64,000 nucleotides of DNA from a bacterium. Lineage in GTDB: Bacteria > Patescibacteriota > Patescibacteriia > Patescibacteriales > JAKAJF01. Shown here one piece after another: positions 2,898-53,115 of this stretch (within the stretch, counting starts at the first letter, position 1; each line of letters begins with the position of its first letter). The translations under genes and the position numbers were made by a program. The notes below the pieces were generated by a model. It was not told the DNA's origin and made no database searches. It was given only the letters and a program-made list of their open reading frames with translations. The stretch spans positions 349-64,348 of the forward strand of contig JAJYLD010000005.1 in NCBI GenBank assembly GCA_021788015.1, given 5' to 3'.

Positions 2898-4004
2898 ATG
2901 AAAAGAAAGTTTGTTTTTTTAATTCATCCCCGGACCATCGATGATTTTTATCGCAGGCTCGGGAATATGCTTGGGTTAAGAGAAGCTGCGGGGATGAAAT
3001 TCTTACCGTATTTATTTCCAAAGCCCGTGGCAAAATGGGTCTTAAAGCGCTTAAGGGGTAGGGCGGGTTTTACCATCTGCTCCCATTTTCGGGCGGGTGA
3101 AGAAGTTGAAGGCTATATTATCGCAATTCTTTTAACCGGAGATCAGATGATTAATCTCCCCCACGCTTTCGTGAGAGATAGGATAATTGATGCGATCATC
3201 TATGCCCGAGATGTACTTGGGGTCGAGAGAGTGGGGTTGGGCGCCTATACTGCGCCTATGACTTTAGGCGGGTATGAAGTTTTCAGGGATAAACGATTTC
3301 ATTTTAACAAATCGAAAAAATCTTGCCGCATAACACACGGAGATTCCCTGACTTCGGTCGCCGCCGTAGAGGCTCTTAAAAAGGGCCTTACTTTAAAGGG
3401 TCGAATCTTTGGGGACAGCATTGTCGGGATTGTCGGAGCCTACGGCGTGGTGGGCAGGGCCGCTGCCATTCTTACTTCTGAGCTGGGTCCGAAGAAACTT
3501 ATTCTTACCGGGCCTAATGTCAGAAAGCTTCAGGAAGTAAGAAATGAAATCGCCAAGACTTTTCAAGGCGAGATACTCACTTCCCAGGATAATTCCACTG
3601 TTTCCGAAGCGGACGCTTTAATCCTGGCCACTTCCGCTCCCACTGACATCATTTCAGCTTCGATGCTCAAAGAGAACGCGGTGGTAGTGGACATGTCTCA
3701 GCCCGTGAATATGAGCAAGAGTGTTTGCGAGCAAAGACTAGATGTACTTCGGATAGACGGCGGATTTATGCACGTCCCCGGGGTTAATCTTGGTTTCGAA
3801 ATGGGTCCTCCGGCAGAAACAACCTTCGCCTGCCTGACCGAGACTATGGTATCTACTATAGTAGGCGATCAGGACAACCATATCGGCCAGGTGGATGTCA
3901 ATTTCGCAAAAAGAATTTTTACCGAGGGGCAGGAAAGGGGATTTGTTTTAGCCCCTTTAACCAACTTCTCGGAGTCCATTGAGAAAGGAGGGAAAAAATT
4001 ATAG
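2898..4004 (+). CDS. Acyl-ACP reductase (AAR)-like / shikimate-DH-like NAD(P)-binding oxidoreductase
   Basis: FLIHP N-terminus, GxxGxxG-like IVGAYGVVGRA and FACLTETMV (compare FACFAEAML of cyanobacterial AAR). Similarity judged from memory. GGGG SD-like run upstream. Confidence 0.5.
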   Translation: MKRKFVFLIHPRTIDDFYRRLGNMLGLREAAGMKFLPYLFPKPVAKWVLKRLRGRAGFTICSHFRAGEEVEGYIIAILLTGDQMINLPHAFVRDRIIDAIIYARDVLGVERVGLGAYTAPMTLGGYEVFRDKRFHFNKSKKSCRITHGDSLTSVAAVEALKKGLTLKGRIFGDSIVGIVGAYGVVGRAAAILTSELGPKKLILTGPNVRKLQEVRNEIAKTFQGEILTSQDNSTVSEADALILATSAPTDIISASMLKENAVVVDMSQPVNMSKSVCEQRLDVLRIDGGFMHVPGVNLGFEMGPPAETTFACLTETMVSTIVGDQDNHIGQVDVNFAKRIFTEGQERGFVLAPLTNFSESIEKGGKKL

Positions 4005-6307: not shown

Positions 6308-8494
6308 ATGACTTTTTTCGCATTTTCAGCTTTAGTTAACGCTTTGATCAGCTTTTTTCTGGGCTCTTTAGTTTACGCGAGAGGCAAAAATTTCCTGAAT
6401 AAAAGTTTTAGCCAGCTTAACTTTGTTATAGCTTTTTGGAGTTTTGGCTATGTTCTTTGGCAGCTTAGCACTTCACAATATCTCGCTTTGGCTTTATTAA
6501 AGGCCATGATGATTTTTGGTCTCTTGGTCGCGCCCTTTGATTATCTTTTTACCATTTATTTTCTTGGAATCGAGAAAAAGCAAAAAATTTCGATTTATTT
6601 TACATATATCGCTTCCGCGCTGTTTGCTCTAATCGATATTTTCAGTAACGGAATCGTAAACGGAGTGGATAAAAAAATGGAATTTAAATTTTGGCCGAAT
6701 GCCGGCCCGTTGCTTTCAGTCTATTTGGTAATTTTCGCTTTTTGGCTTTTGAATTCTCTGTATTTTTTAATCAGAGAATACAAAAGGACGAAAAGCGGAA
6801 TCAAAAAAGAGCAGCTGAGATATATTTTAATCGGCAGTCTTTTGGGATACGCCGGAGGATCAACCAATTTTTTCCTTTGGTATAATATTCAAATTCCCCC
6901 ATATGGGAATATTTTTATTTCCCTTCTAATCATGATGATGTTTTACGCCGTTTTTACCCATCACATCATTGACATAAAAGTGGCTGCGCGTCGGTATTCG
7001 GTTTATCTTTTTTCTTTGCTCACGATCATTCTGCCGGCCTTGATCGTTAAAATATTTTTAAGCTCTCATTTTCAGAATTCGACTGTTTTAAATATCACCA
7101 TACTCATACTCGGCGTTTCTTTTTTTCCCGCGGTCAAAGATTTCTTCTATAAATTATCCAACAAGTATTTCTTTTCTTCTCTTTACAACCCGAAACAGGT
7201 TATCGCCGAACTTGGAGAAAATTTGAACATGTTTTTGGAAGCCGATAAAATTTATTATTTTATTTCCGACTTGATAATGAATTCTTTTCATTCCAAAGCA
7301 ATCGCTGTTTTGCTTTATGATAACGACAAAGAAACTTATTTTCATATAAAGTATAACAACGGTTTCGATCCGGATAATTTAATAAAAATAAACATTGAAA
7401 AAAATATTAAAAATGAATTTTTAGAAAATAAGATTATTTATTTTGAAGAATTGAGACATAACCATTACGCGGAATTTAAAGAATTTATTCGAAGCGTGAC
7501 TGATCTGGAAATGGCGGCTTTCGTGCCCATAAATTTAAAGAACAAAAGATTGGGCCTGATCGTGCTCGGGCCGAAAGAATCCGGAGATATTTATAACGAA
7601 GACGACGCCGACGTTTTGAAAATTATGAGCTCTCAAACCTCGATAGCTCTTGAAAATGCGTTTCTGTACGAAGAAACGGAAATGTTTAACGTCAAATTAA
7701 AAAAAGAGATAGATATGGCGGTGGCCGATTTAAAGAAAGCCAACGCGAAATTAAAAGAACTTGATGAAGCGAAGAGTGAATTCATTTCCATCGCCTCACA
7801 TCAATTGCGCACGCCTTTGACGGCGATAAAGGGCTATGTTTCAATGATGCTCGAAGGCGATTTTGGCAGGCTGGAACAGAAAAAAGAGGAATCTTTAAAG
7901 AAAGTGTTCGATTCGAATCAGAGATTAATCGGATTGATTGAAGATCTTTTGGACGTCTCTCGCATTGAGTCGGGGAAAATGGAATACAATTTTAAAGAAG
8001 CGCGACTTAACGGCATGGTTTTAAGCGTCATAGACGAGCTTGCAAATTATGCAAAAAATAAAAATTTGAATTTAGAATTTGAAAAACCGAACGAAGGATT
8101 GCCGGAAATAAGAATGGACGAAGAAAAAATCAGGCTGGTGATTATGAATCTGATTGATAATGCCATTAAGTATACGCAAAAAGGATTCGTGCGAGTCAGT
8201 TTAAAAGTAAATAACCCACCCTCCCTTACTAAAGGGGGCACAGTTGAGTTTTGCGTCAGTGATTCAGGGATGGGAGTAAGACCGGAAGATTTACCTAATC
8301 TTTTTCAAAAGTTTACCCGCGGCACCGGTACGTCTCTCGTTCATACCGAAGGCACGGGGCTCGGGCTTTATGTCGCTCGTCAAATGATCGAGGCTCATCA
8401 CGGTCATATTTGGGCGGAAAGCGACGGGGAAGGGAAGGGATCAAGGTTTTGTTTCAGTTTACCAATTAAATATACGGTAAAAGTGCAAAAATAA
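6308..8494 (+). CDS. Sensor histidine kinase, tandem paralog of 4064-6217
   Basis: Same architecture and near-identical H-box SIASHQLRTPLTAIKGY. ATG 6308 preferred over the TTG at 6281. Confidence 0.9.
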   Translation: MTFFAFSALVNALISFFLGSLVYARGKNFLNKSFSQLNFVIAFWSFGYVLWQLSTSQYLALALLKAMMIFGLLVAPFDYLFTIYFLGIEKKQKISIYFTYIASALFALIDIFSNGIVNGVDKKMEFKFWPNAGPLLSVYLVIFAFWLLNSLYFLIREYKRTKSGIKKEQLRYILIGSLLGYAGGSTNFFLWYNIQIPPYGNIFISLLIMMMFYAVFTHHIIDIKVAARRYSVYLFSLLTIILPALIVKIFLSSHFQNSTVLNITILILGVSFFPAVKDFFYKLSNKYFFSSLYNPKQVIAELGENLNMFLEADKIYYFISDLIMNSFHSKAIAVLLYDNDKETYFHIKYNNGFDPDNLIKINIEKNIKNEFLENKIIYFEELRHNHYAEFKEFIRSVTDLEMAAFVPINLKNKRLGLIVLGPKESGDIYNEDDADVLKIMSSQTSIALENAFLYEETEMFNVKLKKEIDMAVADLKKANAKLKELDEAKSEFISIASHQLRTPLTAIKGYVSMMLEGDFGRLEQKKEESLKKVFDSNQRLIGLIEDLLDVSRIESGKMEYNFKEARLNGMVLSVIDELANYAKNKNLNLEFEKPNEGLPEIRMDEEKIRLVIMNLIDNAIKYTQKGFVRVSLKVNNPPSLTKGGTVEFCVSDSGMGVRPEDLPNLFQKFTRGTGTSLVHTEGTGLGLYVARQMIEAHHGHIWAESDGEGKGSRFCFSLPIKYTVKVQK
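8213..8240 (+). repeat. GC-rich palindromic unit (family D) in frame in the kinase HATPase domain
   Basis: aacccaccctcccttactaaagggggcac encodes NPPSLTKGG. This segment is absent from the aligned position of the paralog at 4064-6217 (LKKNVDGIEF versus LKVNNPPSLTKGGTVEF). Confidence 0.6.
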
Positions 8495-8562
8495 ATGTTT
8501 AAATTTTCGATTTTTAAATAAACATAATTTTATAATTTTCAATAAAAAGTTTGGAAATTACA

Positions 8563-9042
8563 TCATTGAAAATTGTTTAAAAATTTAAAATTAGAAATTA
8601 AAAATTATAACTTGTAATTGCATTTGACCAATTTTCAAAGACGCATTATAATAATTTAGTAATACATTTATTTTAAAATTTATGATTAAAGTGGACAAAG
8701 ATTTATGCATCGGCTGCGGAACATGCGCGGCTTTGTGCCCGGATACTTTTCAAATCGGAGCCGACGGGAAATCCGAAGCTGTAAATCAAAACAATATGGA
8801 TTGCGCGAAGAAAGCGGCGGAAAGTTGCCCGGTACAGGCGATAAGCGCGGAGTAAAAAATAACGTGTTGAATAAAAACGGCCCGAAAGGGTTGTTTTTTA
8901 ATGGAGGAGATGGTAAAATAAAATTTCCAAATGAAATTTCTAGTTTTAAATTTTTAATTTTTAAACAATTTTCAATGAATCAATTTTTAAAATTTAAAAT
9001 TAAGATATTATTTAAAAATTATAAAATTAGAAATTAAAAATT
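8563..9042. repeat. Repeat bracket around the ferredoxin gene: 23-bp perfect inverted repeat plus 20-bp direct repeat
   Basis: IR is TCATTGAAAATTGTTTAAAAATT at 8563-8585, with its exact reverse complement at 8956-8978. DR is AAAATTAGAAATTAAAAATT at 8587-8606 and 9023-9042. Confidence 0.8.
8682..8855 (+). CDS. Small [4Fe-4S]/[3Fe-4S] ferredoxin (57 aa; below the ORF-track cutoff)
   Basis: MIKVDKDLCIGCGTCAALCP...CPVQAI carries the CxxCxxCxxxCP motif plus a distal CP. Confidence 0.8.
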   Translation: MIKVDKDLCIGCGTCAALCPDTFQIGADGKSEAVNQNNMDCAKKAAESCPVQAISAE

Positions 9043-9050
9043 TTTATATT

Positions 9051-10565
9051 ATGACTCTTGATGATTTAAAAAAATTAAACATCCCCGTTACTTCCGGTTC
9101 CTACCAATTCTATGATCAGGATGGAAAACTGTTATATGTCGGCAAGGCGGCCAATTTGAAAAACCGCGTTTTTTCATATTGGTCTAAAGGCGCGACGCAT
9201 ACGCCGGCGAAGTATTCCATGCTTAAAAAAATAGAAAAGATAAAATGGATCGAGACGGAAAGTGAAATCGAAGCCTTGCTTCTCGAATCCAATTTGATCA
9301 AAAAACATCAGCCGCCTTATAACGTCGCCATGCGCGATGATAAAAGATATTTGTACATAAAAATTTCTACCGAAGACGAGATTCCCGGGATTTTTGTGAC
9401 GCGAAAAATAGACAAGAGCGGAAAATATTTCGGGCCGTTCGTAAGCGCTTTGGCCGTTCGGGAAACACTTAAAGCCATCCGTAAACTTTGGCCGTATTGC
9501 AACATGCGCAAGACGCAAAAAAAGGCTTGCCTTTATTACCAAATAAATCTTTGTCTCGGAGTTTGCAAGGGGTTGATTTCGAAAAAAGAATACATGGACA
9601 GAGTGATTAAGCCGATAATTTTATTTCTTGAAGGGAAGAAAAGAAAAATAATAAAAAATTATGAAGCGAGAATCAAAAATTTAGAATCAAGAATTGGGAA
9701 TCAGGAATTATGGCTTGAGAAAAATAAAAAAGATAATTCAAAATTTCCGCCCAAGACGGATCAGTCCCAAGCTGACATGATTTATGATTCTAAAAAATTG
9801 GAAAATATGCAATCGGAATTGACGCGTTTAAAATTTCAACTTTCAAATATTCATCGCGTGCTTGAACACGCCAAAATTTTGGGTCTCGGCGAAAAATACG
9901 TAAATGATACGGTGGAATTGGCAAAACTTCTGGGTTTAAAGAGGGTGCCGGAAAGAATTGAGGGTTACGACATTGCCAATATTTTCGGTCGAGAAGCGGT
10001 TGGCTCAATGGTGGTTTTTCGGAATGGTGAACCGGACAAAAATGAATATCGAAAATTCAAAATCAAAATGGGCCAAGGAAAGGCGAATGATGTCGGCATG
10101 CTGAAAGAAATTTTGGAAAGAAGATTTAAACATACCTCATCCCCAACCCTTCTCCGCCCCTCCCCAACCCCTCTCCTAATTAGGAGAGGGATAAAGGGTG
10201 AGGCAGAGGAGAGGTGGCCCCTTCCCGATTTGATTATTATTGATGGCGGCAAAGGGCAATTGAATGCCGCTCTTTCCGTTTTTAAAAAAACAAAATTGGA
10301 TATTCCGGTGCTCGCCGTTTCCAAAGGTTCAGCCCGTGAAATCCCTTGGCTCAGGCCAAGGGAAGCGAAGCCTATTTCACGGGCCAGGGGACTAAGGTCG
10401 GCGATCGCTCCGGACAAATTATTTTTTCCAGGCGAGAAAAAACCGCTCGAATTGCCGCTCGCTTCGCCGGCTCTGCATCTTGTCAAAAGAGTGCGCGACG
10501 AGGCGCATCGCTTCGCTATCACTTATCATCGGAAGTTAAGAAGTAAAAATAGATTGTTGAATTAA
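9051..10565 (+). CDS. uvrC: Excinuclease ABC subunit C
   Basis: GIY-YIG N-terminus (YQFYD...LLYVGKAANLKNRV), DGGKGQLN, and a C-terminal RDEAHRFAITYHR motif. Confidence 0.9.
   Translation: MTLDDLKKLNIPVTSGSYQFYDQDGKLLYVGKAANLKNRVFSYWSKGATHTPAKYSMLKKIEKIKWIETESEIEALLLESNLIKKHQPPYNVAMRDDKRYLYIKISTEDEIPGIFVTRKIDKSGKYFGPFVSALAVRETLKAIRKLWPYCNMRKTQKKACLYYQINLCLGVCKGLISKKEYMDRVIKPIILFLEGKKRKIIKNYEARIKNLESRIGNQELWLEKNKKDNSKFPPKTDQSQADMIYDSKKLENMQSELTRLKFQLSNIHRVLEHAKILGLGEKYVNDTVELAKLLGLKRVPERIEGYDIANIFGREAVGSMVVFRNGEPDKNEYRKFKIKMGQGKANDVGMLKEILERRFKHTSSPTLLRPSPTPLLIRRGIKGEAEERWPLPDLIIIDGGKGQLNAALSVFKKTKLDIPVLAVSKGSAREIPWLRPREAKPISRARGLRSAIAPDKLFFPGEKKPLELPLASPALHLVKRVRDEAHRFAITYHRKLRSKNRLLN
10135..10217 (+). 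repeat. GC-rich palindromic unit (family C) in frame in uvrC
   Basis: cctcatccccaaccc...cccctctcctaattaggagaggg...gaggtgg encodes SSPTLLRPSPTPLLIRRGIKGEAEERW, just before the conserved PDLIIIDGGKGQ. Confidence 0.65.
10332..10384 (+). repeat. Second nested palindrome in frame in uvrC
   Basis: GCCCGTGAAAT CCCTTGGC tcag GCCAAGGG ...ATTTCACGGGC. It encodes AREIPWLRPREAKPISRA between VSKG and LFFPGE. Confidence 0.55.
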
Positions 10566-11777: not shown

Positions 11778-11811
11778 ACCTCACCTCAGCCCTCTCCTAG
11801 ACAGGAGAGGG
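11778..11811. repeat. Family C palindromic unit, intergenic copy
   Basis: acctcacctcagCCCTCTCCTagacAGGAGAGGG. Confidence 0.7.
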
Positions 11812-15303: not shown

Positions 15304-15452
15304 AACGCTTCGCTAGGAGTTACTTTCTTGTAACCAAGAAAGTAACCAAAGAAGTTTCGGGGGCTCCAATTCGCTATCACATTGATTTATCTTTAAACTC
15401 TCTTGCTCTGACGCTCAATTTCGCCCCCAAACCCCATTGGTGTTTTGAATAC
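15304..15452. repeat. Family B repeat, copy 1 (about 150 nt)
   Basis: The first ~80 nt (aacgcttcgctaggagttactttcttgtaaccaagaaagtaacc...gggggctccaattcgc) are identical to 34465-34544. The remainder is similar but diverged. Confidence 0.8.
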
Positions 15453-18895: not shown

Positions 18896-21800
18896 ATGAC
18901 CGAAAATAAAGAAAAAAATGCAAACCCGACCGGTCCTTTTCCGGCTATGGAAGAGGAAGTTTTAAATTTTTGGGAAAAGGGAAAAATTTTTGAAAAATCC
19001 GTTCTAAAAAACGCGCCGCGGGGCGATTATGTTTTTTACGACGGCCCGCCGTTCGCGACCGGCACCCCGCACTACGGCCATATTGTCGCAAGCACGATGA
19101 AAGACGCCGTGCCCCGCTACTGGACGATGCGCGGTTACCGCGTGGAAAGAAAATGGGGGTGGGATTGCCATGGTCTCCCGATTGAAAATATCGCCGAAAA
19201 AGAATTGGGCATAACCCGAAAAAAAGAAATCGAGGAAAAACTCGGAGTGGAAAAATTCAATGAAATCTGCCGTTCGAAAGTTTTGGGCTATGTTGAAGAT
19301 TGGAAAAAAATAATTAAGCGTTTGGGTAGATGGGCGGACATGGAAAACCCTTATAAAACCATGGACATTTCTTTTATGGAATCGGTTTGGTGGGTTTTTA
19401 AAGAACTTTGGGATAAGGGTTTGATTTATGAAGGCTATCGCTCAATGCATATCTGTCCCAGATGCGAAACGACGTTATCGCAGCAAGAAGTCGCCGAGGG
19501 TTATAAAATAATTAAGGACATTTCCGCGATCGCGAAGTTTAAATTGGAAGGAGAGCGTAAAACAATTTACATTCTCGCCTGGACAACAACGCCTTGGACA
19601 TTAATCGCCAACGTCGCTTTGGCAATCGGCGAGGATATTGATTATGTCGAAATCGAACACGAAAAGGGCAATTTAATTCTGGCGAAGGCGAAAATTAACG
19701 ATGTCATCGATGGCGAATACAAAATTTTACGAGAATTCAAAGGCAAAGAATTAATTGGTAGAAAATATAAACCATTATTTCCTTATTATACAAAACAGAG
19801 AGACTCAGTTCCTTTGAAAGGAGCCGAGTTTCCGAATCTTGAAAACGGATGGAAAATTTATCCTGCCGATTTTGTAACTACGGAAGAAGGAACGGGAGTC
19901 GTTCATATTGCTCCGGCTTTCGGCGAAGACGATATGAACTTGGGCAAAAAATTCAACTTGCCTTTTGTTCAGCATGTCGGCATGGACGGACGGATTAAAG
20001 AAGAAGCGAAAGGATTCGCCGGCATGGACGTGAAACATATTGAAAACCATCAAAAAACGGATATTGAAATCATAAAATATTTAGCGCATCATCAATCATT
20101 GTTTGCCAAGGGCAAATATGAGCATAGTTATCCGCATTGCTGGCGTTGCGAAACCCCGCTTTTGAATTATGCGACTTCATCATGGTTTGTGAACGTGACG
20201 AAAATCAAGAAGCGAGCAATTGAGCTCGCGGAAAAAATAAATTGGTCGCCGACACATATCAAAGAAGGTCGTTTCGGTAATTGGCTCAAGGGCGCGCGCG
20301 ATTGGTCAATTTCAAGACAGAGATTTTGGGCAAGCGTGATACCAATTTGGAAGTGCGATCATTGCGGCGAAATGAAAGTTTTCGGGTCAGTAGCCGAATT
20401 GGAAAAAATAAGCGGAGAAAAAATTTCGGATTTGCATAAGCATGTCGTCGACAAAATAACTTTCAAGTGTGAAAAATGCGACGGCGAGATGAAGCGCGTT
20501 CCCGACGTTTTGGATACCTGGTTCGATTCCGGTTCGATGCCTTATGCGCAAATGCATTATCCTTTTGAGAACAAGAAAAGATTCGAGGAAAATTTTCCGG
20601 CCGAATTTATCGCCGAAGGTGTCGATCAAACGCGCGCTTGGTTTTATTATCTTCATGTTGTTTCGACAAGCGTCATGGACGCCGATGCTTATAAAAATGT
20701 CATCGTGAACGGCATTGTTTTGGCTGAAGACGGAAAAAAAATGTCAAAACGACTGCAAAATTATCCCGATCCCGCTTTAATGTTCGATAAATACGGAGCC
20801 GACTCCATGCGTTTTTATCTTTTGTCATCGCCGGTTATGTTTGCGGAAAATTTGAATTTTTCCGAAGAAGGTGTGAAAGAAATTTTGCGTAAGGACATTA
20901 TGATTCTTTGGAATGTCTATAAATTCTACGAAATGTTTGCCCTCATCCCCGACCAGGCCTCACCCCAACCCTCTCCTAGCCAGGAGAGGGAGAGTTTGGA
21001 GGCCGTTCCGGAAAATATTTTGGACAAATGGATTTTGGCGCGACTCGCCGAGCTCGAACGCGAAACGACGGCGAGCATGAACAATTACGATTTGCCTCGT
21101 GCAACCCGGCCGATTGAAAATTTTATCGATGATTTATCGACTTGGTATTTAAGAAGATCAAGGGAAAGATTTAAAACTGTAGAGACGCAAAATTCCGTGT
21201 CTCTACCGGCCGATAAACAAGCCGCACTCGCCACCTTAAAGTATGTTTTAACCGATCTCGCGCGAGCTATGGCGCCGTTCACACCTTTTATCGCCGAAAC
21301 TTTATGGCAGAAAGTCACGGGAAATAATTTTCAAGATGAAAACAAGAGTGTGCATCTCGAAAACTGGCCGGAAGCGGAAATCGAGGAGAACGAAGAAGAA
21401 AAAGAAATTTTGGAAAAAATGCGCCTGACTAGAAAAATCGTGGAATTGAGTTTGGCGAAACGCGACGAAGCCGGAATAAAAGTTCGACAACCGCTTCAAA
21501 AATTAAAAATTAAAAATTTAAAATTAAGAATTGAAGAGGAATATTTGAATTTAATCGAAGATGAAGTTAATGTGAAAGAAGTTGATTTTATAAAAGGCGA
21601 TAATGATATTCCTGTGGTTGAGATTGATACGAACATCACCGATGAATTGAAAGTTGAAGGCGTGAAGCGCGACCTGGTCCGTTTCATCAACGCTTTGCGC
21701 AAGGATGCGGGCATGACTATCCGGGATCGCGTCGAAGTTTTTTGGCAATCGGAAAGCGAGCTCGTGAAAAAAGTATTCGCCCAATTCGGAGAAGAAATTA

Positions 21801-21904
21801 TGCGAGACACCCTGAGCGATAAAATCGGCAAAGGCGAGGGCGGAGATTTTAAGAAAGAAGCGAAGATTGAAGGCGAGGCGGTGAAGTTGGGAATAAAGAA
21901 GTAA
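18896..21904 (+). CDS. ileS: Isoleucyl-tRNA synthetase (type 2-like)
   Basis: HYGH (HIGH) and KMSKRL (KMSKS) motifs, CP1 editing region, zinc-knuckle cysteines. Confidence 0.95.
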   Translation: MTENKEKNANPTGPFPAMEEEVLNFWEKGKIFEKSVLKNAPRGDYVFYDGPPFATGTPHYGHIVASTMKDAVPRYWTMRGYRVERKWGWDCHGLPIENIAEKELGITRKKEIEEKLGVEKFNEICRSKVLGYVEDWKKIIKRLGRWADMENPYKTMDISFMESVWWVFKELWDKGLIYEGYRSMHICPRCETTLSQQEVAEGYKIIKDISAIAKFKLEGERKTIYILAWTTTPWTLIANVALAIGEDIDYVEIEHEKGNLILAKAKINDVIDGEYKILREFKGKELIGRKYKPLFPYYTKQRDSVPLKGAEFPNLENGWKIYPADFVTTEEGTGVVHIAPAFGEDDMNLGKKFNLPFVQHVGMDGRIKEEAKGFAGMDVKHIENHQKTDIEIIKYLAHHQSLFAKGKYEHSYPHCWRCETPLLNYATSSWFVNVTKIKKRAIELAEKINWSPTHIKEGRFGNWLKGARDWSISRQRFWASVIPIWKCDHCGEMKVFGSVAELEKISGEKISDLHKHVVDKITFKCEKCDGEMKRVPDVLDTWFDSGSMPYAQMHYPFENKKRFEENFPAEFIAEGVDQTRAWFYYLHVVSTSVMDADAYKNVIVNGIVLAEDGKKMSKRLQNYPDPALMFDKYGADSMRFYLLSSPVMFAENLNFSEEGVKEILRKDIMILWNVYKFYEMFALIPDQASPQPSPSQERESLEAVPENILDKWILARLAELERETTASMNNYDLPRATRPIENFIDDLSTWYLRRSRERFKTVETQNSVSLPADKQAALATLKYVLTDLARAMAPFTPFIAETLWQKVTGNNFQDENKSVHLENWPEAEIEENEEEKEILEKMRLTRKIVELSLAKRDEAGIKVRQPLQKLKIKNLKLRIEEEYLNLIEDEVNVKEVDFIKGDNDIPVVEIDTNITDELKVEGVKRDLVRFINALRKDAGMTIRDRVEVFWQSESELVKKVFAQFGEEIMRDTLSDKIGKGEGGDFKKEAKIEGEAVKLGIKK
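20956..21005 (+). repeat. Family C palindromic unit in frame in ileS
   Basis: aGGCCTCaccccaaCCCTCTCCTagccAGGAGAGGGagagtttgGAGGCC encodes QASPQPSPSQERESLEA. It is preceded by cctcatccccgacc, as in the uvrC copy. Confidence 0.65.
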
Positions 21905-24225: not shown

Positions 24226-24501
24226 ATGAAAATTACAAAAAAAGTGCAGGAAAAATATTTTAAAGCCATTCTTGAAGGCGAGAAAACATACGAAGTCCGT
24301 TTGGCGGATTTTGAATGCAAGCCGGGCGATGTTCTTGTTTTGCTTGAACAAAAAGACGGAACCCGGGAATTGACGGGAAGGAAAATGGAATGCGAAATTT
24401 CCATGGTTTTCAATACGAAAGATATGGAAAAATTTCACAGCAAAAATGAAATCGAAAAGTATGGATTATTGGTTATGGCCATAAAAAAGAAAGAAATATG
24501 A
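24226..24501 (+). CDS. ASCH/DUF3850-like PUA-fold protein
   Basis: KYFKAILEGEKTYEVRLADF...GD.L.L is typical of ASCH/DUF3850. The stop TGA lies in the ATGA at 24498-24501. Confidence 0.6.
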   Translation: MKITKKVQEKYFKAILEGEKTYEVRLADFECKPGDVLVLLEQKDGTRELTGRKMECEISMVFNTKDMEKFHSKNEIEKYGLLVMAIKKKEI

Positions 24502-24623
24502 ATCCCGTTAGAAGCCGCAATCGCTTTCGGCGGAGAATAAATAAAACGGAGTTTAAAAAATTGTAATTTACGCGGATGTGCAATCAAATATTCTTGATCG
24601 CGATCTGCTTCTAACGGGATGAA
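24498..24623 (+). repeat. Family A start-codon hairpin element, copy 1
   Basis: ATGAA+TCCCGTTAGAAGCCGCAATCGC ... GATCGCGATCTGCTTCTAACGGGATGAA. Perfect 14-bp IR at 24502-15/24607-20. The terminal AT is part of ATG 24619. Confidence 0.9.
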
Positions 24624-33816: not shown

Positions 33817-33847
33817 GGCTCCATAGTCTCTTTAGAGCTATGGAGCC
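33817..33847 (+). repeat. REP-like hairpin upstream of the transposase
   Basis: GGCTCCATAG tctctttagag CTATGGAGCC. Confidence 0.8.
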
Positions 33848-33874
33848 ATAGTGCAAGATGTTTAATTAAAACAA

Positions 33875-34419
33875 ATGCCGACATTAAGAATAAACAAAGA
33901 AAATGAAAATTTGATTCATTTTTTAACTATAACGGTTATTGAATGGATCGATATATTTACCAAGCCGGAGTATTGCAAAATAATTACAGACAGTCTGAAA
34001 TTTTGCCGAGAAAATAAAGGGTTAATTTTATATGGATATGTAATTATGCCAAATCATATTCATCTGTTAGTTGGAGCAAGGGGAAGTTTTAATTTATCGC
34101 AAATTATCAGCGATTTTAAAAAACACACAACCAGAGAAATTTTGAAAACATTAAAAAAGATAACAGAAGGTATATTCTGAATCTAATTAAAAATAGCTTC
34201 GTCAGAAAAGAAAATTACAATGACCAAATTTGGCAGAGAGAAAATTATCCGGAAGTCATAACTAGTGAAAAGTTCTTCTTTGAAAAATTAAATTATATTC
34301 ATAATAATCCCGTTAAAAAAGAATTTGTAGAAAAACCGGAAGATTGGCTTTATTCATCAGCAAGAAATACAATTTTACACGGTAACAGCGTAATTGAAAT
34401 TGACGATTGGAGTGGATAA
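33875..34419 (+). mobile_element. RayT / IS200-like HUH (Y1) transposase in two frames joined at A_AAA_AAG (34153-34159)
   Basis: Frame 1 (33875-34180) has the HUH motif MPNHIHLLV. The -1 frame from 34159 reads DNRRYIL...IWQRENYPEVI...LNYIHNNPVKKEFV..PEDWLYSS up to TAA 34417-19. Confidence 0.75.
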
Positions 34420-34430
34420 GTCTGCATTTA

Positions 34431-34460
34431 GGCTCCACAGCCCTTCGGGACTATGGAGCC
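34431..34460 (+). repeat. REP-like hairpin downstream of the transposase
   Basis: GGCTCCACAG cccttcggga CTATGGAGCC. Same orientation as 33817-33847. Confidence 0.8.
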
Positions 34461-34464
34461 AGCC

Positions 34465-34611
34465 AACGCTTCGCTAGGAGTTACTTTCTTGTAACCAAGA
34501 AAGTAACCAAAGAAGTTTCGGGGGCTCCAATTCGCTATAACATTGATTAGAATTTTCGTCTCTCACCCTGGCGCTCAATTCCGCCCCCGAACCCTATTAG
34601 TGTTCTGAATA
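34465..34611. repeat. Family B repeat, copy 2
   Basis: The first ~80 nt are identical to 15304-15383. It directly abuts the right REP hairpin. Confidence 0.8.
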
Positions 34612-38493: not shown

Positions 38494-39198
38494 ATTTATA
38501 AATTAAAAAGACCCCATGCATATTTGAGTAGCTTTGTATTTTTTAAACTGTTTGGTTTTTTATCTTTTCTGAAAAATCTTTTTACCAATTATAAAAATTT
38601 CTCCGGTATCGATTTCGTCTCAAGACGCTTCGTTCGGGTCTCTCCGCGGAGGGTCGTTTTTTTAGACATCTGCCTGTCGGCAGGCGGGAAGAACCAAAAA
38701 GTCGCTCGCTTGAGAAAATTAAGGAATTTTTCGTTTTCGCTCGGGACGATTTCAAACTAGCTACACACAAACAGTGAAATCTTTTTTCTTCGCTTTCGGT
38801 AAAAAATTCCACTAAATTTTCTATGCTCGCATGGCTTGCATTTCTGGAAATTTTGCGTTAAAATAATAATAAATAAAGAGGCGAGAATTAGCGAAAAAAA
38901 ATAACTAATTTAAGCCTAAATAAGCCAGAACCCATCTCAAAAATAATCTCTAGCTCTTTTTCAGTCTTTTTCGGTTGCAAAATCCAAAAATCTCGTCGAA
39001 ATAGCTTAAATTATTACTCCTCAATTTTTGTATTTTTCCCTCGAAAAATCCTTGAAAAAGACTAAAAGCTATTTTCGAGACAGGTTTTAATAAAAATTGC
39101 TGATTATATGCATTTTTTATTTATTTTAGCGGGCAGTCCGGTCGACGAATAAAAAACCCATTAATCTACAAACAATAAAAAATATAACTTTAATTTTT

Positions 39199-39324
39199 AT
39201 GTATCCCGTTAGAAGCCGCGATCGCTTCGACAGGAAAAACATAAACAAGCAAAAAATCTAATTAATTATATTACACAGATCGAAATCAATATTCTTGATC
39301 GCGATCTGATTCTAATGGGATGTA
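39199..39324 (+). repeat. Family A start-codon hairpin element, copy 2
   Basis: ATGTA+TCCCGTTAGAAGCCGCGATCGC ... GATCGCGATCTGATTCTAATGGGATGTA. The terminal ATG is the start of 39320. Confidence 0.9.
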
Positions 39325-45711: not shown

Positions 45712-45713
45712 AC

Positions 45714-45955
45714 ACGAATCCCGTTAGGAGCAGCGATCGTTTTTTACGGGAGCGGACAAAAACATAGAATAAAAAACCATAATTTACGCAAATGCGCAAT
45801 TTAAGATTTTGATCGCGATCCCGATACCGCAAATCCTATCGGATTCGGCCACGGGACAAGTTCTGCCGCGCAAAACTTATTATTAACCACGTCTCGCCCC
45901 CGTAGTCACCGAATTTACGAGGTGCACTACAGGGGTCTGCTTTTAACGGAATGAA
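45714..45955 (+). repeat. Family A element, long copy 4, with an extra ~117-nt structured module (45821-45937)
   Basis: The 5' arm is aatcccgttaggagcagcgatcg. The module is ATCCCGATACC...CCCCGTAGTCACCgaatttacgaGGTGcACTACaGGGGTC. The 3' arm TGCTTTTAACGGAATGAA ends in ATG 45951. Confidence 0.85.
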
Positions 45956-48474: not shown

Positions 48475-48521
48475 TCTTTTCCTCTTTTTTCAAATCACAA
48501 AATTATATATATAAATAAGAT

Positions 48522-48648
48522 ATGAATCCCGTTAGAAGCCGCGATCGCTTTTAGGGGGAGTCAAAAAACAAAAATAAAAAAATAAATAATTTTAAAATAT
48601 CATGCAGATCAAAAATTTTTGATCGCGATCTGCTTCTAACGGGATGAA
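48522..48648 (+). repeat. Family A start-codon hairpin element, copy 5
   Basis: ATGAA+TCCCGTTAGAAGCCGCGATCGC ... GATCGCGATCTGCTTCTAACGGGATGAA. The terminal ATG 48644 opens the Ile-rich leader ORF. Confidence 0.9.
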
Positions 48649-52828: not shown

Positions 52829-52880
52829 AACCTCACCCCAACTCCTCTCCTAGTTCAAGAGAGGGGCCTGACTTGAACAG
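52829..52880. repeat. Family C palindromic unit, intergenic variant
   Basis: aacctcaccccaactCCTCTCctagttcaaGAGAGGggcctgacttgaac. Confidence 0.6.
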
Positions 52881-52911
52881 TTTTTTAATATTTGTTAGAA
52901 TGTAAGCAGAT

Positions 52912-53115
52912 ATGAATCCCGTTAGAAGCCGCGATCGCTTCAACGGGAGTAAAAATTAAAATATAATATTCGCAGAGTGATCCCGATACCACCAATCCTA
53001 TCGGATTTGGCTATGGGACAAGTCCATTGCAAGTAATTTATTATTAATTACGCCTCGCCCCGTAGTCACCGAGTTTACGAGGTGCACTACCGGGGTCTGC
53101 TTCTAACGGGATGAA
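52912..53115 (+). repeat. Family A element, long copy 6, with the structured module (52982-53097)
   Basis: ATGAA+TCCCGTTAGAAGCCGCGATCGC; the module is homologous to 45821-45937; the 3' arm is TGCTTCTAACGGGATGAA. The terminal ATG 53111 opens a 26-codon ORF. Confidence 0.9.

Follow-up and report, generated by a model that had tools for sequence, protein, structure and literature searches.

How a short palindromic repeat can lie in frame within a core gene, and what keeps it there, is the question raised by a 64,000-nt stretch of contig JAJYLD010000005.1 (hereafter the window; 42% GC), which derives from a metagenome-assembled genome (MAG) of the Patescibacteria, or candidate phyla radiation (CPR). 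The nearest relatives of the UvrC protein encoded there are proteins of Candidatus Falkowbacteria (120 orthologs of 417-511 amino acids (aa), from Falkowbacteria or Patescibacteria where the source names them), and by this comparison the host appears to be a Falkowbacteria-like CPR bacterium. A preliminary description of the window had reported four copies of a palindromic "family C", two of them within uvrC and ileS. Searching both strands of the whole window with the three-block pattern CCCTCNCCC-N2-4-CCCTCNCCC-N3-8-GGGNGAGGG, allowing up to five substitutions, recovered exactly these four sites (10156, 11778, 20957 and 52830, all on the + strand), against none in 40 first-order Markov simulations of the window; the 19-mer CCTCACCCCAACCCTCTCC, with up to three mismatches, had two matches in the window and none in 100 dinucleotide shuffles. 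The units lie at 10135-10217, 11778-11811, 20941-21005 and 52830-52865, the first and the third being intragenic and the other two intergenic. Our findings suggest that they belong to a repeat family already known as BoxC, and that they are probably selfish or neutral non-autonomous repeats, which are kept as translated passengers where protein loops tolerate them.

The uvrC gene (9051..10565, + strand) encodes a 504-aa protein of the short CPR form, which ends after the RNase H-like endonuclease domain (Pfam GIY-YIG, UvrC_M and UvrC_RNaseH_dom), and it holds two in-frame repeat inserts. The first of them is a composite BoxC/TM-type unit (10134..10214, + strand) that adds 27 codons (aa 362-388, peptide TSSPTLLRPSPTPLLIRRGIKGEAEER) and has its core three-block unit at 10158-10190. 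Read from the sequence, the order of blocks on the + strand is CCTCATCCC-CAA-CCCTTCTCC-GCC-CCTCCCC-AA-CCCCTCTCC-TAATTA-GGAGAGGG-ATAAA-GGGTGAGG-CAGA-GGAGAGG, in which a central hairpin is surrounded by four C-blocks and three G-blocks; together they form one long imperfect hairpin, whose folding as DNA exceeds that of shuffled sequences (z = -2.96 on the + strand and -2.88 on the - strand). The ileS gene (18896..21904, + strand) encodes a 1002-aa isoleucyl-tRNA synthetase (IleRS) of type 2, eukaryote-like (Pfam tRNA-synt_1, Anticodon_1 and DUF5915; the top PDB matches are cytoplasmic IleRS), and holds one in-frame unit (20941..21004, + strand). This unit consists of a partial block, CCTCATCCCCGACC, at 20941-20954 and a core, GCCTCACCC-CAA-CCCTCTCCT-AGCC-AGGAGAGGG, at 20957-20990; it contains the exact 19-mer, folds as a hairpin with z = -3.74 and encodes the peptide QASPQPSPSQERESLEA (aa 687-703, nt 20954-21004). 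Both open reading frames (ORFs) run uninterrupted through their units, with junction peptides that include FKHTSSPTLLR and ALIPDQASPQPSPSQER, and translation also bears out the Pro/Ser-rich and then Glu/Gly/Arg-rich peptides quoted in the preliminary description; the extra upstream CCTCATCCCCRACC of that description was located at 10135 in uvrC and at 20941 in ileS.

The intergenic unit at 11778..11811 (+ strand; ACCTCACCT-CAG-CCCTCTCCT-AGAC-AGGAGAGGG) has two mismatches to the 19-mer and a hairpin z of -4.35, and has a terminator-like hairpin immediately on its 5' side and a TTGACA box on its 3' side, the terminator and promoter roles being judged by eye. The unit at 52830..52865 (+ strand; ACCTCACCC-CAAC-TCCTCTCCT-AGTTC-AAGAGAGGG) is degenerate, with five mismatches to the three-block pattern, with a terminator-like hairpin immediately 5' of it. 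Folded as single-stranded DNA, three units surpass shuffled sequences (z from -3.0 to -4.4), whereas the hairpin of the 52830 unit is no better than they are (z = +0.29). The search of the whole window against Rfam at gathering threshold gave tRNA as the sole match, and a permissive scan of 10050-10450 gave only sub-threshold matches to eukaryotic microRNA precursors, that is, generic hairpins.

Since the source is a MAG and repeats break assemblies (many of the DUF559/TM contigs discussed below are shorter than 3 kb), the units might be repeats misjoined into genes during assembly or binning. A contig of 5,484 nt from the independent Logan assembly of SRR13170411 is identical to the window end to end, although it may share reads with the MAG; furthermore, the reading frames are preserved, and inserts of the same kind occur at the same sites in orthologs from other samples and projects. 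With these observations, an artefact is the least credible of the explanations considered here and can be set aside almost completely.

The copies are not a local family, and their identity was missed in the preliminary description. A full-text search with the arm sequences led to the work of Holder et al. (2015; PMC4666352) on an element named BoxC, later PIT and then TMECO, a G/C-rich intrastrand triplex motif that also appears in earlier literature (Bergler, 1992; Hoyne and Maher, 2000). The TMECO pattern, CCCTCNCCC-N3-6-GGGNGAGGG-N3-GGGNGAGGG with one mismatch tolerated, has 23 copies in Escherichia coli K-12, "always located intergenically", and 3,610 among the proteobacteria (262 genomes), and cyanobacteria abound in related G/C-rich motifs (PMC4666352). 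In vitro its G-rich strand folds into a stable triplex, of which no footprint was seen in vivo, and the E. coli copies have neither promoter nor terminator activity, are not tied to gene function, are unlinked to mobile elements and are associated with locally variable regions (PMC4666352). The window units correspond to the reverse complement of this pattern, with fitting block order and loop lengths: two C-blocks are followed by a hairpin, as CCCTCACCC-N3-CCCTCTCCC-loop-GGGAGAGGG. Counted over the 24 specified bases, the mismatches to TMECO number three in the uvrC core, three in ileS, four in the 11778 unit and five in the 52830 unit, where the strict definition allows one, and they fall mostly at block ends, so that the blocks are effectively 8 nt long in the window.

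The 19-mer of the ileS unit is common to canonical copies with 9-nt blocks in other phyla. When it was scanned in its exact form against one genome per GTDB species (596 Gb, both strands), at least 125 matches were obtained in at least 120 stretches from more than ten phyla, compared with about four matches expected by chance on both strands, an estimate that takes base composition as uniform. Among the matches listed, the hosts are Alpha-, Beta- and Gammaproteobacteria, Bacteroidota, Planctomycetota, Verrucomicrobiota, Chloroflexota, Cyanobacteria, Melainabacteria, Myxococcota, Acidobacteriota, Desulfobacterota and one Parcubacteria genome, and the complementary arm GGNGAGGG, which was not part of the query, follows the 19-mer within 22 nt in 105 of the 125 (84%). 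The units are also dispersed locally, with four copies in the 64-kb window and two in the 19.7-kb related locus L005. The same layout of three near-identical blocks (CCCTCNCCC / GGGNGAGGG) with loops of 3 and 3-6 nt, the dispersed and multi-copy occurrence, the extreme sequence conservation across taxa, the lack of a known transposase and the resemblance of the uvrC composite to the inverted-pair arrangement occasionally seen in E. coli are all shared with BoxC/PIT/TMECO, and on this sequence evidence we assign the four units to the BoxC/PIT/triplex-motif family. They differ from the E. coli copies in their second loop (TTG/CAA, against the TTA or CCG of the E. coli types), in their effectively 8-nt blocks, in their host, a CPR bacterium of 42% GC rather than a proteobacterium, and in that two of the four lie within ORFs and in frame, while the E. 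coli copies are intergenic. In our view, the intergenic location characterises the E. coli copies and does not define the family. In low-GC genomes of other phyla, too, the exact 19-mer unit occurs within long enzyme-like ORFs (L016, L049, L074, L097, L115 and L040), for example HsdR-like (L016, unit at aa 303-315), PriA-like and asparagine-synthase-like ones, identified by eye from their translations. In the HsdR-like and PriA-like ORFs, some 10 residues separate the unit from the Walker A motif downstream of it.

The alignment of the 120 UvrC orthologs showed that the segment encoded by the first uvrC unit (aa 362-388) is extra. It sits between the conserved MLKEILERRF and WPLPDLIIIDGG, and about 30 of the 120 orthologs are without it and have a minimal FNNDW link (ERRFNNDWPLPDL) in its place, while the remaining ones carry 6 to 56 additional residues made of unrelated repeat-like peptide types. 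Some of these are of the family C type (SPQPSPYKGEG, SPPTPLLIRRGE); others are IPLTPFVKGG/PLKKGGEGG, VILRPQAEES...LRSAQDD, IQNPKSKI and more. The UvrC of Thermotoga maritima reads RRYSKHPLPNL at this loop and has no insert. Alignments made with phmmer to the solved UvrC structures of T. maritima (2nrr) and Deinococcus radiodurans (8b0q) split exactly at both inserts of the window protein, the break at the first one being at residues 360 and 382/387. In the AlphaFold2 model of UvrC, whose mean predicted local distance difference test (pLDDT) score is 84, the first insert lies between the helix 347-360 and the strand 394-398, and pLDDT falls below 50 at residues 367-371 and 373-384.

These data bear on whether the segments could be functional protein loops, Pro/Ser-rich followed by acidic or basic stretches, that are held by selection at the protein level with the palindrome as a by-product. 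The ORFs are intact and the segments are kept in essential or repair genes, as such a role would demand. Nevertheless, the alignments largely refute it: the segments are additional residues and not a conserved protein sequence, many orthologs are devoid of them, the model is of low confidence at them, and their DNA is shared with intergenic copies and with other phyla. We therefore regard this explanation as very improbable. As judged from the alignments, the uvrC loop is clearly a hotspot, occupied by several unrelated hairpin-repeat families.

The situation in ileS is less clear-cut, and here the earlier claim of extra in-frame segments stands only in part. In the comparison of 120 IleRS orthologs between the anchors FYEMFA and NILDKWI, the loop was found in all of them, with 34-53 residues between the anchors and 48 in the window, so the ileS unit lengthens a universal loop of variable length by about 9-14 residues net, which is a moderate expansion and not a clean insertion. 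A few IleRS orthologs have similar repeat peptides (PPRPSPCKGEG...IPLLTKEGLGEV and PTPGPSPAPIVTGEG). In an AlphaFold2 model of the IleRS fragment, the unit sits in the loop that joins two long confident helices (157-182 and 208-229 in fragment numbering), with a pLDDT of about 60. Thus, for uvrC as well as for ileS, the models and the ortholog alignments agree with the preliminary description in placing the inserts in loops between confident secondary-structure elements.

A second line of evidence is the conservation of the units as nucleotide sequence. The related locus L005 has, at the same uvrC codon and straight after the His codon as in the window, AAGCAT-ACCTCACCCCAACCCTCTCC-TTATAA-GGAGAGGG, and locus L004 has a close variant; L005 holds an additional intergenic copy 2.5 kb from its uvrC copy. 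The uvrC genes of the window, L004 and L005 share 63-67% of their aligned residues, and the third positions of conserved four-fold codons are only 43-45% identical, so that synonymous sites among them are close to saturation. A match of 19 out of 19 nucleotides to the pan-bacterial consensus despite this near-saturation implies either that the copies are recent and independent or that something acts on the DNA itself, such as conversion from other copies or structural selection.

One alternative would be that the nucleic acid structure is kept for a local role, whether in making transcription or replication pause, in stabilising the mRNA or marking it for processing, or as a programmed hotspot of instability, with coding as a side effect; the structure might be the hairpin itself or one formed by the G-rich antisense strand, a triplex or a G-quadruplex. 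The conservation of the unit nucleotides far above the synonymous sites of the host genes is what this would predict, and it is also consistent with the occupation of the same uvrC site in three genomes, with the terminator-like hairpins next to both intergenic copies and with the stable in vitro triplex of the G-rich strand and the association with variable regions in E. coli (PMC4666352). In the E. coli fabI-ycjD region (L252, L273), about 38% of 5,426 complete genomes lose homology to K-12 roughly 40 nt before the unit known as TMECO copy 9. The C-rich strand is the + strand in each of the four window copies, which would also fit, but with n = 4 this bias is not significant (p about 0.12). 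The GC skew of the window is positive in nearly all 2-kb bins, and its long ORFs are mostly on the + strand. On the other hand, the E. coli copies lack promoter and terminator activity, an in vivo triplex footprint and any link to gene function (PMC4666352), many orthologs are empty or have unrelated repeat families at the uvrC site, and Rfam gave no family, only sub-threshold generic hairpins. Taken together, a local role of the structure is unlikely.

The distribution of filled and empty sites was then read on a neighbour-joining tree built from conserved UvrC columns, the proteins being about 60% identical. Empty and filled sites interleave on this tree, with family C-type inserts in at least seven places, and there are sister pairs of which one member is filled and the other empty (P0043/P0051 and P0057/P0112), a filled ortholog among empty ones (P0038) and nested cases in which another segment splits the hairpin at the uvrC loop (such as P0004). 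The interleaving, the sister pairs and the nested cases favour repeated gain and replacement in a permissive loop. The residue pair before the insert (aa 360-361 in the window, nt 10128-10133) also differs between the two groups: filled orthologs have K/A/R-H or K-R, whichever the repeat family, whereas empty ones have N-N, occasionally K-N or A-N, and T. maritima has K-H without an insert. Two old allele classes, convergent optimisation of the turn or a target preference are possible causes of this split.

Under a different history, the uvrC and ileS loops would have acquired a unit once in an ancestor, followed by vertical inheritance, many losses and gene conversion to the consensus. The prefix common to all filled uvrC alleles, together with the KH of T. 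maritima, fits a single acquisition, as do the large P0014-P0042 clade, in which one identical insert is found throughout, and the universal ileS loop. At least five unrelated repeat families at the uvrC site and filled and empty sister taxa in several places are, however, difficult to reconcile with it, and so is an exact 19-mer common to distant phyla; moreover, gene conversion needs multiple dispersed donors, and this implies a spreading repeat family anyway. For these reasons we consider a single acquisition improbable, and return to the units as repeats that spread and are carried along.

The second in-frame insert of uvrC (10332..10388, + strand; 57 nt, 19 codons, aa 428-446, peptide AREIPWLRPREAKPISRAR) is a nested palindrome. 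It forms a three-way hairpin, with an outer stem GCCCGTGAAAT/ATTTCACGGGC, an inner hairpin CCCTTGGC-TCAG-GCCAAGGG and a GCGAAGC mini-hairpin, and its DNA fold has an energy of -21.3 kcal/mol (z = -7.5). It is missing from 113 of the 120 UvrC orthologs, and six others carry an insert at the same site. Comparison of six uvrC genes (window, L003 and L127-L130) revealed inserts of 57, 54 or 51 nt, all divisible by three, in which the outer stem is kept with one pair in three forms (G-C, C-G and U-A), while the inner hairpins differ in sequence and stay hairpins, three pairs being changed on both sides (covariation). The apparent GGCTTG repeat at this place in L127 is native coding sequence for GL-GL. 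In the UvrC model the insert lies between the strands 420-424 and 456-458 with a pLDDT of 49-60. Although it is single-copy in the window, the pattern CCCGTGAAAT-N20-45-ATTTCACGGG occurs in metagenome contigs in many unrelated contexts, within long ORFs as well as intergenic, and only two uvrC genes are among the matches listed. The preliminary description was right in calling this palindrome unrelated to family C, and it missed that the palindrome itself belongs to a separate family of hairpin repeats, which is widely dispersed and of which a copy has been caught here in the next permissive loop. A ribozyme or another known RNA was considered for this insert and rejected, as it has no conserved unpaired junction nucleotides and no Rfam match.

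A third variable region of UvrC, the linker at aa 219-246, also has repeat-like peptides among the orthologs. AT-rich repeats with a 14-nt periodicity (TCAAGAATTnnGAAT-like) are typical of intergenic DNA in the window (as at 8054-8619 and 9005-9055) and occur in frame too, in uvrC (9659-9709, aa about 204-220, IKNLESRIGNQEL) and in the C-terminal part of ileS (21496-21552, LKIKNLKLRIEEE); orthologs have related peptides, such as IRNQELG and IKNYELR, at the same uvrC linker.

Based on these findings, we propose that the repeats would land widely and that the intragenic copies in essential genes would survive as passengers only if their length is a multiple of three, the frame is free of stops and the loop tolerates the added residues. 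Their translation would give Pro/Ser-rich and then Gly/Glu/Arg-rich segments, which form disordered surface loops, and the uvrC loop between helix 347-360 and strand 394-398 would have been refilled repeatedly, in different CPR lineages, with unrelated hairpin-repeat families. In the intragenic copies the C-rich strand is the sense strand and is open in the frame used (TCA CCC CAA CCC TCT CCT for SPQPSP). The C-rich strand is open in all three frames and the G-rich strand has a TGA in one, which makes survival within ORFs easy. According to this proposal the copies would have arisen by insertion, recently and repeatedly, and would be both translated and neutral.

Several points weigh against this proposal. 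Neither an insertion event nor a target-site duplication nor a mobilising enzyme was found for the window units, whose translation is taken from intact ORFs, and there are only four copies in 64 kb. The E. coli family is always intergenic and unlinked to mobile elements (PMC4666352). Occupancy of the same site could result from vertical descent with homogenisation by gene conversion, and the contrast between K/A/R-H/R in filled and N-N in empty orthologs hints at two old allele classes and not at simple insertion. The deep nodes of a neighbour-joining tree of proteins as divergent as these are unreliable. In ileS, besides the presence of the loop in every ortholog, that of the yeast-type IleRS is only five residues shorter.

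Previous studies of other repeats offer parallels to units that are carried in frame. Rickettsia palindromic elements (RPE; Ogata et al., 2000; reviewed in PMC10969869) are about 100-150 bp long and make up ten Rickettsia-specific families (RPE-1 to RPE-10). The window units resemble them in being palindromic repeats that lie in frame in unrelated housekeeping genes and encode peptides at surface positions compatible with the fold, and are set apart by their size (34-83 nt, against about 150 bp), their Patescibacteria host and their pan-bacterial family. The likeness suggested in the preliminary description therefore holds for behaviour and not for ancestry or size, and the relation to RPE is best seen as an analogy and not as membership. 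Prokaryotic MITEs, which are miniature inverted-repeat transposable elements, can also fuse in frame with ORFs, as described for the Coxiella QMITE, intragenic ERIC and the Anabaena MITEs (PMC10969869, PMC5896051). Both are small non-autonomous repeats able to extend or interrupt ORFs in frame, but the window units are much shorter and show no terminal inverted repeats derived from insertion sequences (IS). No target-site duplication is visible at the junctions of the uvrC copies (window, L004 and L005), the ileS copy or the intergenic copies, which were compared without a closely related empty site. Our literature search, in agreement with the earlier statement that this had not been described for such genomes, found no paper on in-frame repeats in CPR/Patescibacteria. 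A separate kind of in-frame selfish element is present in the same genome group: the GyrA gene of related Falkowbacteria-like contigs (L005/L006, 4207-8160) has an intein with a LAGLIDADG endonuclease (Pfam Intein_splicing and LAGLIDADG_3).

Repetitive extragenic palindromic (REP) sequences and the bacterial interspersed mosaic elements (BIMEs) built on them, with their REP-associated tyrosine transposases (RAYTs), share with the units the short G/C-rich hairpins, the mostly intergenic location and the frequent position beside terminators, and the window holds a RAYT-like gene. REP hairpins have a conserved GTAG or CGTC tetranucleotide at one end (Di Nocera, 2013; PMC3733652). Such a tag is found at the ends of the window units on neither strand, and the third block of BoxC is not present in REPs. 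The RAYT-like gene, an IS200/RAYT-like Y1 transposase gene (33875-34418, + strand; Pfam Y1_Tnp, E = 5.4e-9; region 33817..34460), is frameshifted near an A-run at about 34165 and is flanked by hairpins of the GGCTCC(A/C)(T/C)AG...CTATGGAGCC type, GGCTCCATAG-N11-CTATGGAGCC at 33817-33847 and GGCTCCACAG-N10-CTATGGAGCC at 34431-34460 (+ strand), in a classic REP-RAYT-REP layout. It was rejected as the mobiliser of the BoxC-type units because the gene is frameshifted and its flanking hairpins differ from the units and are not dispersed in the window.

Two further repeats were observed in the window. An 84-nt repeat with the hairpin GTTACTTTCTTG-TAAC-CAAGAAAGTAAC is present at 15304-15387 and 34465-34548 in copies 99% identical, the second directly 3' of the RAYT-like gene. 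An element of 125-240 nt has five copies (24497-24623, 39198-39324, 45713-45955, 48521-48648 and 52911-53115) with the inverted ends ATGAATCCCGTTAGAAGC(C)GCGATCGC ... GATCGCGATCTGCTTCTAACGGGATGAA and no Rfam match at gathering threshold; at least two of the copies run, at their right end, into the ATG of the ORF that follows (24619 and 39320), and the element might be a leader RNA or else a MITE providing signals for translation.

As regards a possible mobilising enzyme, a lead came from genes for DUF559, a Vsr-like PD-(D/E)XK endonuclease family. In Candidatus Levybacteria GCA_016188975.1 (L271), two complete inverted units (2955-2992 and 3345-3380) exactly enclose a DUF559 ORF, and in a Gastranaerophilales MAG (L043, 2407-2840) a cassette of unit, DUF559 and inverted unit lies in frame in a PriA-like ORF, just upstream of Walker A; the relative orientation of the flanking units differs between these two examples. 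DUF559 ORFs bracketed by inverted units were also found in L009 (820-1350), L113 (335-800), L253, L257, L259 and L261, so that several phyla are represented; among the 120 unit-anchored loci, two besides L043 have a DUF559 gene within about 150 nt of a unit. In E. coli K-12, ycjD, a DUF559 gene beside fabI (L252, 1205-1761), is about 170 nt from TMECO copy 9 and has a degenerate unit hairpin at its 3' end. The first description of BoxC is reportedly placed at fabI/envM.

The association was also observed when DUF559 genes were fetched from IMG/VR independently of the units. Fourteen strict unit hairpins were found in the 10 kb within 250 nt of these ORFs (1.4 per kb) and none in the 17.6 kb further out, compared with eight in 709 kb of unrelated metagenome DNA (0.011 per kb), an enrichment of about 100-fold beside DUF559. 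In addition, 13 of 120 DUF559 homologs read through into unit peptides (PHPNPLP, LTPTLSP, SPSPKGEG and similar). It is conceivable, though at present somewhat doubtful, that a compact, pan-bacterial selfish cassette encoding DUF559 has BoxC/TM units as its ends or as its homing target, in which case solo or paired units, such as the CPR uvrC and ileS copies and the 23 copies of E. coli, may be non-autonomous derivatives or empty sites. A tblastn search for DUF559 in the window and in related uvrC loci at E <= 10 returned only noise, and our literature search found no paper linking DUF559 with BoxC-type repeats. In TCM3e1, the one E. coli genome examined at the fabI-ycjD divergence, a TetR/RND efflux island replaces the ycjD side with no unit at the junction; this divergence is consistent with the reported instability and is uninformative on cassette ends.

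In conclusion, while the motif itself has been known since the 1990s, its presence in a CPR genome, within genes and in frame, is new. BoxC/PIT has long been without a function, an origin or an explanation for its sequence conservation, and an exact 19-mer of it can now be followed across more than ten phyla. The findings suggest that even streamlined CPR genomes tolerate selfish hairpin repeats, apparently read through by translation, in core enzymes, and they identify permissive loops in UvrC and IleRS. They also serve as a warning that unusual Pro/Ser/Gly-rich segments and differences in length among CPR proteins can stem from repeat DNA and not from adaptation. The many natural filled and empty sites in one well-aligned uvrC loop constitute material for working out how such elements move, and the association with DUF559, if true, would offer a concrete hypothesis for the enzyme that mobilises or targets them.

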